Assembly (NCBI GenBank): GCA_964016885.1 | Contig: OZ024747.1 | Coordinates: 22,816,001 to 22,880,000, forward strand | Origin: Eledone cirrhosa | Lineage: Eukaryota | Length of the DNA: 64,000 nucleotides | Reading direction: 5' to 3' | Shown here: positions 16,719 to 17,596 of the stretch, piece by piece | How positions within the stretch are numbered: position 1 is the first letter of the stretch | Layout of the letters: the number at the start of each line of letters is the position of its first letter | The notes under the pieces: model-generated | Databases searched by the model: none | What the model was told of the DNA's origin: nothing | Seen by the model: the letters and a program-made list of their open reading frames with translations, nothing else | Made by a program: the position numbers and the translations under genes

Positions 16719-17179
16719 TCTACCCGGAGTTGCGACCGATAGATAGTATTAGCAATTGGAAAGACCAACAGAAACATTGTTTCCTCGGTCCGATTTGACA
16801 AAAGTCGATCGATCCTTTTTTATATATAAACGGAAAAAATGAAATGAAATTTCATTTCTCACTCTTAGTACGGCTGTTACTTAAATATAAGTATGTATAC
16901 GTACATACATATATGTATACAGACGTACAGTAGTATGTATATATATATATACATACATGCACACATATATATATGTACGTATGGATTCACCGAACATTTA
17001 TTATAATGCTCGGTGTGTTTGTAAACATCCCGTATACATTTCGTTTCATTTTTTCCGTTTATCGTTTTCAGTACCCCGGCCGATTAACTCACTCGATATG
17101 CAAATTAGGCTGCTCAGCCGTTAATATGCATAAGGAAAGTATATACTTTCAGACGTTCAATCACCTGACAGGAAGGTAT

Positions 17180-17222
17180 ACGTTGCTGACGATAGCTAAT
17201 AAGCTTGAAACTAGTACAGCGT
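17180..17222 (+). ncRNA. Type I hammerhead ribozyme (minimal, probably dimeric)
   Basis: ACGTTG-CTGACGA-T-AGCT(AATA)AGCT-T-GAAAC-TA-GTA-CAGCGT; stem I extends to CTGACA/TGTCAG. Confidence 0.8.
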
Positions 17223-17596
17223 TCCTTTGTCAGTGTTGAACAAATGAGCAACGATGGTTGCTAGACACTACGGCTTAATACGGGATGTTTGTTTTCAAAC
17301 ACACCGAGCATTATAATAAATGTTCGGTGAATCCATACGTACATATATATATGTGTGTATGTATATATATATACATACTACTGTACGTCTCTATACATAT
17401 ATGTATGTACTTATACATACTTATATATATATGTGTGTATGTATATATATATATATACATACTACTGTACGTCTGTATACATATATGTATGTACGTATAC
17501 ATACTTATATATATATACATGTATATATATATATACTACTGTACGTCTGTATACATATATGTATGTACGTATACATACTTATATATATATATACAC

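Follow-up and report, generated by a model that had tools for sequence, protein, structure and literature searches.

We analyzed a 64,000-nt stretch of the Eledone cirrhosa genome (positions 22,816,001 to 22,880,000 of contig OZ024747.1, forward strand; hereafter the window), in which the original prediction, made from the sequence alone, had placed a shared cassette of an octamer and a TATA-like element ahead of two hammerhead ribozymes and had read the cassette as an internal promoter. The cassette is present at both places (17087-17146 in copy 1 and 38062-38121 in copy 2), and its 16-base core, ATGCAAATTAGKCTGC, occurs twice in the window against an expectation of 0.11, a count reached by 1 of 100 shuffles. 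Each site holds a hammerhead retrozyme; the two belong to related families, which we named G and T, and the elements of both families are retrozymes of the kind without long terminal repeats (non-LTR retrozymes). The features of the two copies are as follows.

17038..17426, plus strand: copy 1, a G1-type retrozyme unit (blastn 95.5% over 396 bases; unit length from arrays; tandem-repeat table)
17087-17092, plus strand: ACTCAC of copy 1, preceding the box
17097..17108, plus strand: box TATGCAAATTAG of copy 1, with the octamer at 17098-17105; the same 12-mer lies at -78 of U6 locus L032
17122..17132, plus strand: inverted octamer arm TAATATGCATA of copy 1, pairing with the box at 10 of 11 positions
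17140..17146, plus strand: TATA-like box TATATAC of copy 1, 43 bases from the box start
17180..17222, plus strand: hammerhead of copy 1 (sequence reading; stem covariation)
17292..17295, plus strand: first T4 run of copy 1 past the predicted start; the array unit has no T4 there, and its first run is a T6 at +310
37932..38483, plus strand: copy 2, a T-type retrozyme (blastn 95.1% over 574 bases of a doubled 466-base unit)
38062-38067, plus strand: ACTCAC of copy 2, preceding the box
38072..38083, plus strand: box TATGCAAATTAG of copy 2, with the octamer at 38073-38080
38096..38106, plus strand: inverted octamer arm TAATTTTCATA of copy 2, pairing with the box at 10 of 11 positions
38116..38121, plus strand: TATA-like box TATAAC of copy 2, 44 bases from the box start
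38167..38209, plus strand: hammerhead of copy 2 (Rfam Hammerhead_HH9; stem covariation)
38396..38400, plus strand: first T5 run of copy 2 past the predicted start, at about +252

As had been predicted, the octamer precedes the CTGANGA core by 88 bases in copy 1 and by 100 bases in copy 2, and the surrounding sequence has diverged, with only 145 of 277 columns identical in the pairwise alignment of the two copies. Copy 1 amounts to roughly 0.9 of a 430-base unit and continues into a repeat of its own microsatellite-like segment. Copy 2 is a partial tandem of about 1.2 units, with direct repeats at 37942-38040 and 38385-38483, and is flanked by (TA)n tracts (37830-37940 and 38481-38736). All open reading frames of at least 120 amino acids that touch the two copies run through simple repeats.

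The cassette pattern ACTCACNNNNTATGCAAATTAGNCTGC has 22,038 matches in the 3.0-Gb genome and none in the reversed control, so that the pair in the window is no chance likeness of two sites. For the ribozyme, the pattern CTGANGA-N12-16-GAAACTAGT gave 40,520 genome matches (6 in the control). The genome holds the copies singly, as head-to-head pairs and in long tandem arrays, whose periods are 466 bases in T, 430 in G1, 484-502 in G2 and 424 in G3, each array unit holding one cassette and one ribozyme, and the G and T units (424-502 bases) are non-coding and partly microsatellite-like. A T-type unit with at least 99% identity to the window region 37930-38490 was also present in contigs labelled as two other organisms, and one of these contigs runs into the next T unit, which corresponds to the tandem form. 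The family is therefore common to close relatives, or the labels denote near-identical taxa.

Each G or T unit carries one type I hammerhead having six pairs in helix I, four pairs in helix II and a two-pair palindromic helix III. The copy 1 ribozyme consists of helix I (ACGUUG/CAGCGU), the core CUGACGA (17186-17192), helix II (UAGC/GCUU), GAAAC (17207-17211) and the palindrome ACUAGU, with a predicted cleavage site between 17216 and 17217; that of copy 2 has AUAUUG/CAAUAU, CUGAUGA (38173-38179), GUUG/CAAC, GAAAC (38194-38198) and the same palindrome, with the predicted cleavage site between 38203 and 38204. The stems have diverged through compensating changes, in agreement with the divergence that had been noted for the two window ribozymes: in a set of 21 ribozymes from G and T, both sides were changed in 7 of 10 stem pairs, 89.5% of the cells were paired compared with 15-50% when the partners were slid, and the covariation score (0.385 versus 0.136) was matched by none of 500 shuffles. 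At the gathering threshold, Rfam gave no match anywhere in the window; at the E-value threshold, the T-type ribozyme alone scored (Hammerhead_HH9 on copy 2, 37.7 bits, E 5e-8, under the gathering score of 52), and copy 1 had no match. According to section 4 of PMC4209133, canonical animal hammerheads with a short palindromic helix III act as dimers in cleavage. It is therefore unlikely that a solo copy with one ribozyme is a complete self-processing unit, and the proposal that each copy is a self-transcribing, self-cleaving unit fits poorly with the window copies, each of which has a single ribozyme of this dimer type.

To measure the conservation of the cassette, we took the first 100 ribozyme matches in genome order, which grouped into 42 clusters, and used one copy from each; the copies were selected by the ribozyme alone because circularity had to be avoided. 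The exact octamer was found in 28 of the 42 clusters and a one-base variant in 5, and the remaining 9 were cut off or rearranged 5' of the octamer. After these 9 had been dropped, the alignment contained 33 copies from four subfamilies. Between subfamilies, no block of this alignment varies less than the box TATGCAAATTAG: the subfamily majorities differ in only 1 of the 12 box columns versus 89 of 134 other unselected columns (Fisher p = 1.1e-4). This comparison of the motif with its flanks had been set beforehand as a possible refutation of the promoter proposal, and the box proved the better kept of the two. The partner arm varied in 2 of 11 columns and the TATA in 3 of 7; by comparison, 18 of 31 columns varied in the 5' flank, 33 of 43 in the spacer that runs from the TATA to the ribozyme, and 23 of 30 on the 3' side. 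The share of differing cells within subfamilies was 2.3% for the box, compared with 10.3% for the 5' flank and 7.1% for the spacer. In a four-unit alignment, the identity between T and G is highest at the box (0.83-0.85; ribozyme, 0.70-0.75) and is equaled only by a microsatellite-like block (0.80-0.85).

This equally conserved block has no obvious function, the arrays are nearly uniform, and T and G can be aligned over the whole unit, all of which would be expected if the cassette were a mere ancestral inheritance, functionless and kept by recent amplification and array homogenisation. We regard this as very unlikely. Apart from the significantly lower variability of the box than that of the other unselected columns, the box recurs in two families, R3 and R4, which otherwise share little with G and T in that interval (see below), and an identical 12-mer also stands ahead of U6 genes with no relation to the repeats.

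We located the U6, U1, U2, 7SK, U6atac, RNase P, U5 and U4 loci in this genome and read their upstream regions. The motif TATGSWAATKAG was present at -77 to -79, together with a TATA at -30, in 7 of the 12 U6 loci that had flanks, namely two dispersed genes and 5 of the 10 fetched members of the array. Both elements are found at the same positions in the best U6atac locus. In U6 locus L032, the 12-mer is identical to the box of the repeats, which carry it in the same orientation with respect to the TATA and the ribozyme strand. Neither the box nor the exact octamer was found, on either strand within 150 bases upstream, in any of 38 loci of the other classes (10 U1, 10 U2, 8 U4, 8 U5, one 7SK and one RNase P). 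These loci have AATCAGTG near -57 and a TATA near -30, and the RNA polymerase II genes among them also have AATTAAAT near -88; the distance from CAG to TATA is 24-25 bases in U1, U2, U4 and U5, and 31-32 bases in 7SK and RNase P. Since the box occurs in U6 and U6atac only and in none of the 38 other loci of the small nuclear RNA (snRNA) class, the octamer in this genome is part of a proximal, U6-class-specific element and no general distal snRNA enhancer. In vertebrate snRNA genes, the octamer lies in a distal element ~200 bases upstream, apart from the proximal element; here, the repeats have it about 72 bases ahead of their predicted start, and the U6 genes have it at -77. The original prediction had equated the octamer with the Oct site of snRNA enhancers, and this equation has to be given up for a genome in which the element is proximal (-78) and restricted to U6 and U6atac, and in which U1, U2, U4 and U5 use AATTAAAT, AATCAGTG and TATA.

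The three-part upstream grammar of the host snRNA genes was read at loci L043-L062 and L115-L130 (U1, U2, U5 and U4), L077 (7SK) and L084 (RNase P), and its spacing rule between CAG and TATA is reminiscent of plant snRNA promoters. The U6 tandem array (C19:31780605-31840331, loci L033-L042) contains at least 36 genes with a period of ~1.8 kb, and in 5 of the 10 members fetched the upstream sequence is replaced from about -35, so that the box is gone and the TATA stays. Fourteen dispersed U6 matches were left out of the promoter comparison as promoter-less copies.

The box also occurs with a TATA outside the G and T families. The pattern box-N35-37-TATAWA, which has the U6 spacing and excludes normal G and T copies, gave 617 genome matches versus 78 in the control. 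Thirty of the 617 loci were fetched and represent 29 distinct places: 16 belong to R3, 2 to R4, 5 to G-type variants with insertions and 3 to other box-bearing repeats, and 3 are apparent chance matches in TA-rich DNA. R3 and R4 appear to be two further hammerhead families that keep the box and the TATA at U6 spacing, and R3 is an older family. Fourteen R3 members were assigned by blastn (74.8-88.2% identity to one member) and 2 more by alignment. In R3 and R4, a hammerhead-like core lies 45-61 bases past the TATA, and T runs follow 20-46 bases past the ribozyme match where intact; their spacing of 47-49 bases between box and TATA is imposed by the search pattern. The window itself contains an R3 copy that was found via the similarity of its body, with the box unused, and that independently shows a spacing of 48 bases.

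54932..55160, plus strand: decayed R3 copy (blastn 77-79% to R3 loci L139 and L155)

This copy has a box-like TATGCGAATGAA at 54976-54987 (9 of 12 positions), TATATA at 55024-55029, a mutated core CTGCTGA at 55082-55088 and a T6 run at 55132-55137.

Loci L138, L149, L156 and similar ones represent more repeat families in which the box, often in the form TATGCAAATGAG with GCTAATCAGCC or ATTAATCACC behind it, and a TATA are set at the spacing of U6, and no canonical hammerhead core was recognisable downstream in the copies fetched. Another hammerhead-like motif, CTGATGA..CCCGAATGAAAC, is located at 39530-39650 of the window as a head-to-head pair in a near-perfect inverted repeat between microsatellites, with the cores at 39564-39587 (minus strand) and 39594-39617 (plus strand). 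No box or TATA was seen ahead of this motif. Partial copies of it are located near 39200-39250 and 55225-55300 in the window, one of which adjoins the 3' end of the R3 copy, and the motif was also found at locus L158.

The octamer ATGCAAAT is the classical POU site, and the cassette could accordingly be an ordinary octamer-plus-TATA promoter, read by a POU-domain factor and RNA polymerase II, with transcripts crossing T runs and unit borders. The G and T units have two inverted octamer-like arms, the host polymerase II snRNA genes also have a TATA at -30, and in G, R3 and R4 a TCAG lies exactly 25 bases before the TATA, which is the spacing of U1, U2, U4 and U5 and not that of 7SK and RNase P. 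Furthermore, polymerase II would cross the T5-T7 runs of the units and yield full-unit RNAs, and the newt satellite 2 promoter is cited as snRNA-type and polymerase II (PMC2220036). Nevertheless, we consider such a promoter improbable here: in none of the 36 U1, U2, U4 and U5 loci was the box or the exact octamer present in either orientation within the 150 bases upstream, the host genes with the box are polymerase III genes only, and a second octamer arm is lacking in R3, in R4 and in the U6 genes. The -57 box argues in the same direction. A matrix built from the -57 boxes of 17 host promoters, on which real sites score at least 7.2, was applied to the repeats 25 bases ahead of their TATA. 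It gave 3.8-6.3 in G, where the site ranks 1-3 within the unit, and poor scores in T (-13.5) and in R3 and R4 (-3.2 to -21). With these weak scores, the TCAG is not convincing as a host-type -57 box.

In our estimate, the chances are about even that the shared cassette is a built-in snRNA-type promoter of the host U6/U6atac kind in the two related retrozyme families. The module is real, highly conserved and promoter-like, and, judged from sequence, a promoter function is likely but unproven. As to the earlier claim that the elements carry their own internal promoter, the part that stands is a cassette that is better kept than its flanks and is built from the element found ahead of the host U6 and U6atac genes; the part that fell is its assignment to the distal Oct enhancer type. 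Type 3 (U6-type) polymerase III promoters have an upstream proximal element and a TATA, both outside the transcribed part. The module resembles them in its upstream box (~12-20 bases in type 3 promoters), its TATA at a predicted -30, the T runs downstream and the 12-mer identical to that of U6 locus L032, and differs from them in that the G and T spacing is 4-5 bases shorter and in that a mobile repeat must re-copy its promoter via a permuted or circular RNA.

Since the TATA lies at -30 in the host genes, transcription would be predicted to start ~30 bases past the TATA, near A17170 in copy 1 and A38145 in copy 2, the register of copy 2 being set by aligning it with the host snRNA promoters. 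These positions are 16 and 28 bases before the respective ribozyme cores, so that helix I is included. The ends of truncated copies give a weak hint of such a start. Ten copies are cut off at most 91 bases upstream of the core, namely the 9 cut-off or rearranged clusters and L100, which ends 2 bases short of the box. In 4 of these 10, the end falls at 14-24 bases ahead of the core, around the predicted +1 at -16, compared with ~1.4 expected per 17-base span. A plus-strand G-type copy at locus L004 has lost the TATA and the spacer through an internal deletion and kept the box and the ribozyme, and thus represents a natural 'promoter-deleted' example.

A possible life cycle can be outlined as follows. 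On each unit, TBP and the host proteins that recognise the U6 box would assemble, and transcription would begin near A17170 and A38145, ahead of the ribozyme. In arrays, read-through into the next unit would produce an RNA with two ribozymes, which could pair via helix III and cut out a unit-length RNA. The unit RNA would then be circularised and copied by a Penelope-type reverse transcriptase, and the promoter would thereby be carried in every new unit. A solo copy, by the same scheme, would give only a short, poorly processed RNA. If the promoter works, RNA polymerase III would be somewhat the likelier enzyme, favored by the occurrence of the box with two polymerase III genes only and by the T5-T7 runs that close the units.

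Several observations weigh against a promoter of this kind and this choice of enzyme. First, the spacing between box and TATA is 43-44 bases in G and T versus 47-49 bases in U6 and U6atac; the difference of 4-5 bases corresponds to roughly half a turn of the helix, and promoters of this type can be sensitive to such a shift. Second, T5-T7 runs are present between the ribozyme and the next cassette in every unit, 270-360 bases downstream, and would stop polymerase III before the next unit; therefore, they fit poorly with the need for a full-unit RNA. The placement of these runs is within the chance range, and the depletion of T4 in the transcribed body is not significant, as 36-76% of shuffles also lacked T4. 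This block of read-through, the shorter G and T spacing and the TCAG distance in G, R3 and R4 would all favor an snRNA-type polymerase II promoter. Third, the host -57 box is not convincingly present in the repeats. Fourth, the ribozymes of R3 and R4 were recognised by motif alone and had no Rfam match at E <=0.01, and an intact hammerhead core was found in only 4 of 16 R3 copies. Fifth, a 2020 review states in its section 9 that retrozymes seem to have no promoters (PMC7761336). At last, the cassettes of G and T form a stable hairpin with inner pairs that differ by family, which makes a constraint at the level of RNA or of a cruciform plausible.

The hairpin leads to an alternative in which the cassette has no promoter role, is kept as a hairpin in the retrozyme RNA and is transcribed by read-through; the hairpin might then stabilise the circle, regulate the ribozyme or be recognised by the reverse transcriptase. 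Consistent with this, both window cassettes fold stably (17087-17146, -14.3 kcal/mol, z -2.34; 38062-38121, -11.6 kcal/mol, z -4.34), different inner pairs extend the stem in G and in T, and the review cited above sees no promoters in retrozymes. However, the inverted partner (10 of 11 positions) is confined to G and T: 14 R3, 2 R4 and 4 U6 or U6atac sequences reach 7-9 of 11, where the null mode is 7-8, so that R3, R4 and the untranscribed upstream regions of U6 and U6atac keep the box with a partner no better than chance. The subfamily differences in the outer stem sit on the 3' arm, except for one A-to-G change at the inner end of the box in G3, and each 3'-arm change breaks a pair, none of which is compensated. 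The R3 cassette in the window folds no better than shuffles (z -0.64). Because of the missing partner, the uncompensated changes and the R3 fold, the hairpin does not account for the box, and it may be an added feature of G and T. It also leaves unexplained the TATA at a fixed distance and in U6-like orientation. We therefore judge a pure hairpin role to be unlikely, and return to the U6-type promoter as the preferred reading of the cassette.

The surroundings of the window copies show how they were inserted. A further partial unit adjoins copy 1.

16826..17027, minus strand: inverted 5'-truncated partial G1 unit (unit positions 105-307; blastn to the G1 array unit 96.1% over 205 bases, reversed)

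Inverted truncated neighbors and partial tandems are marks of Penelope-type insertion (PMC8557442), and the window copies were inserted in this manner, copy 2 as a partial tandem in (TA)n and copy 1 with its adjoining inverted truncated copy. In the window, the G unit's own microsatellite-like segment (TATGTATGTACGTATAC and TA runs) is amplified at 17343-17703 as a tandem array with a 74-84-base repeat, and matches of this segment to mir-297 and other Rfam microRNAs were discarded as simple-repeat artefacts. Elsewhere in the window, the region 29753-36617 contains large simple arrays, namely a TGG-rich 48-base repeat, a (CCA)n tract of ~3.2 kb and, at 33855-36617, a 29-base unit in 95 copies; these arrays give long spurious open frames on both strands.

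Non-LTR retrozymes of animals have been described before, as has their link to Penelope elements (PMC7229834; bioRxiv 10.64898/2026.07.22.740005). The G and T elements resemble them in being short non-coding tandem units with one type I hammerhead and thousands of copies (PMC7229834), in occurring as solo, dimer and multimer forms, and in the Penelope-like link (PMC7229834; 10.64898/2026.07.22.740005). They differ in the length of the unit, 424-502 bases versus the reported ~170-400 bases, and in the conserved module of box and TATA, matching host U6 promoters, that precedes the ribozyme. In the accessible text of PMC7229834, 'promoter' refers to T7 constructs only, and the word is absent from that of the preprint 10.64898/2026.07.22.740005; promoters in the LTRs of plant retrozymes were reported after the 2020 review (PMC9695139, PMC12029980). 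A literature search combining hammerhead or retrozyme with polymerase III or proximal sequence element returned nothing relevant. Compared with Penelope pseudo-LTR insertions, the window copies share the partial tandems, the inverted 5'-truncated neighbor and the (TA)n targets (PMC8557442, PMC4209133), and their ribozymes share the short palindromic helix III that acts as a dimer (PMC4209133), whereas the units here have no attached reverse transcriptase gene.

Two other hammerhead repeats have been linked to promoters of their own. Newt satellite 2, according to its citation in PMC2220036, is a hammerhead-bearing tandem satellite with its own snRNA-type polymerase II promoter within the repeat. 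The repeats described here are alike in arrangement and come from another animal group; moreover, the host genes that match their module are U6 and U6atac, in contrast to the polymerase II assignment of the newt promoter, and the -57 box of the host polymerase II genes is at best doubtful in them. The second case is the schistosome Sm-alpha repeats, whose promoter, the subject of Ferbeyre et al. in 1998, is reportedly internal and tRNA-like. The module here lies upstream, and a tRNA-like internal promoter was rejected, as the tRNA search of the window found none. The two systems would nonetheless share a polymerase III promoter on a hammerhead repeat, cited as functional for Sm-alpha (PMC2220036) and predicted here.

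Animal retrozymes are abundant, highly expressed sources of small circular RNAs, and the 2020 review assumes read-through transcription because no promoter was seen (PMC7761336). A built-in promoter would explain both the expression and the copy number of retrozymes. The module, being common to the host U6 and U6atac genes and kept in four repeat families, yields a hypothesis that can be tested by mutation, and it revives the 1994 newt observation as a general feature and no oddity. As a by-product, the snRNA promoter grammar of a poorly studied animal lineage was obtained from sequence alone, which is useful for small-RNA expression constructs. We tentatively put forward a broader and rather doubtful proposal, in which several retrozyme lineages each kept the host U6/U6atac promoter module and each unit would be a small polymerase III gene for ribozyme RNA. 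If this were true, it would be the first known case of a retroelement that carries an upstream type 3 promoter along with it; the upstream promoter would be rebuilt at every insertion through the circular or tandem life cycle, and the rise of a protein-free repeat to tens of thousands of copies would be explained.

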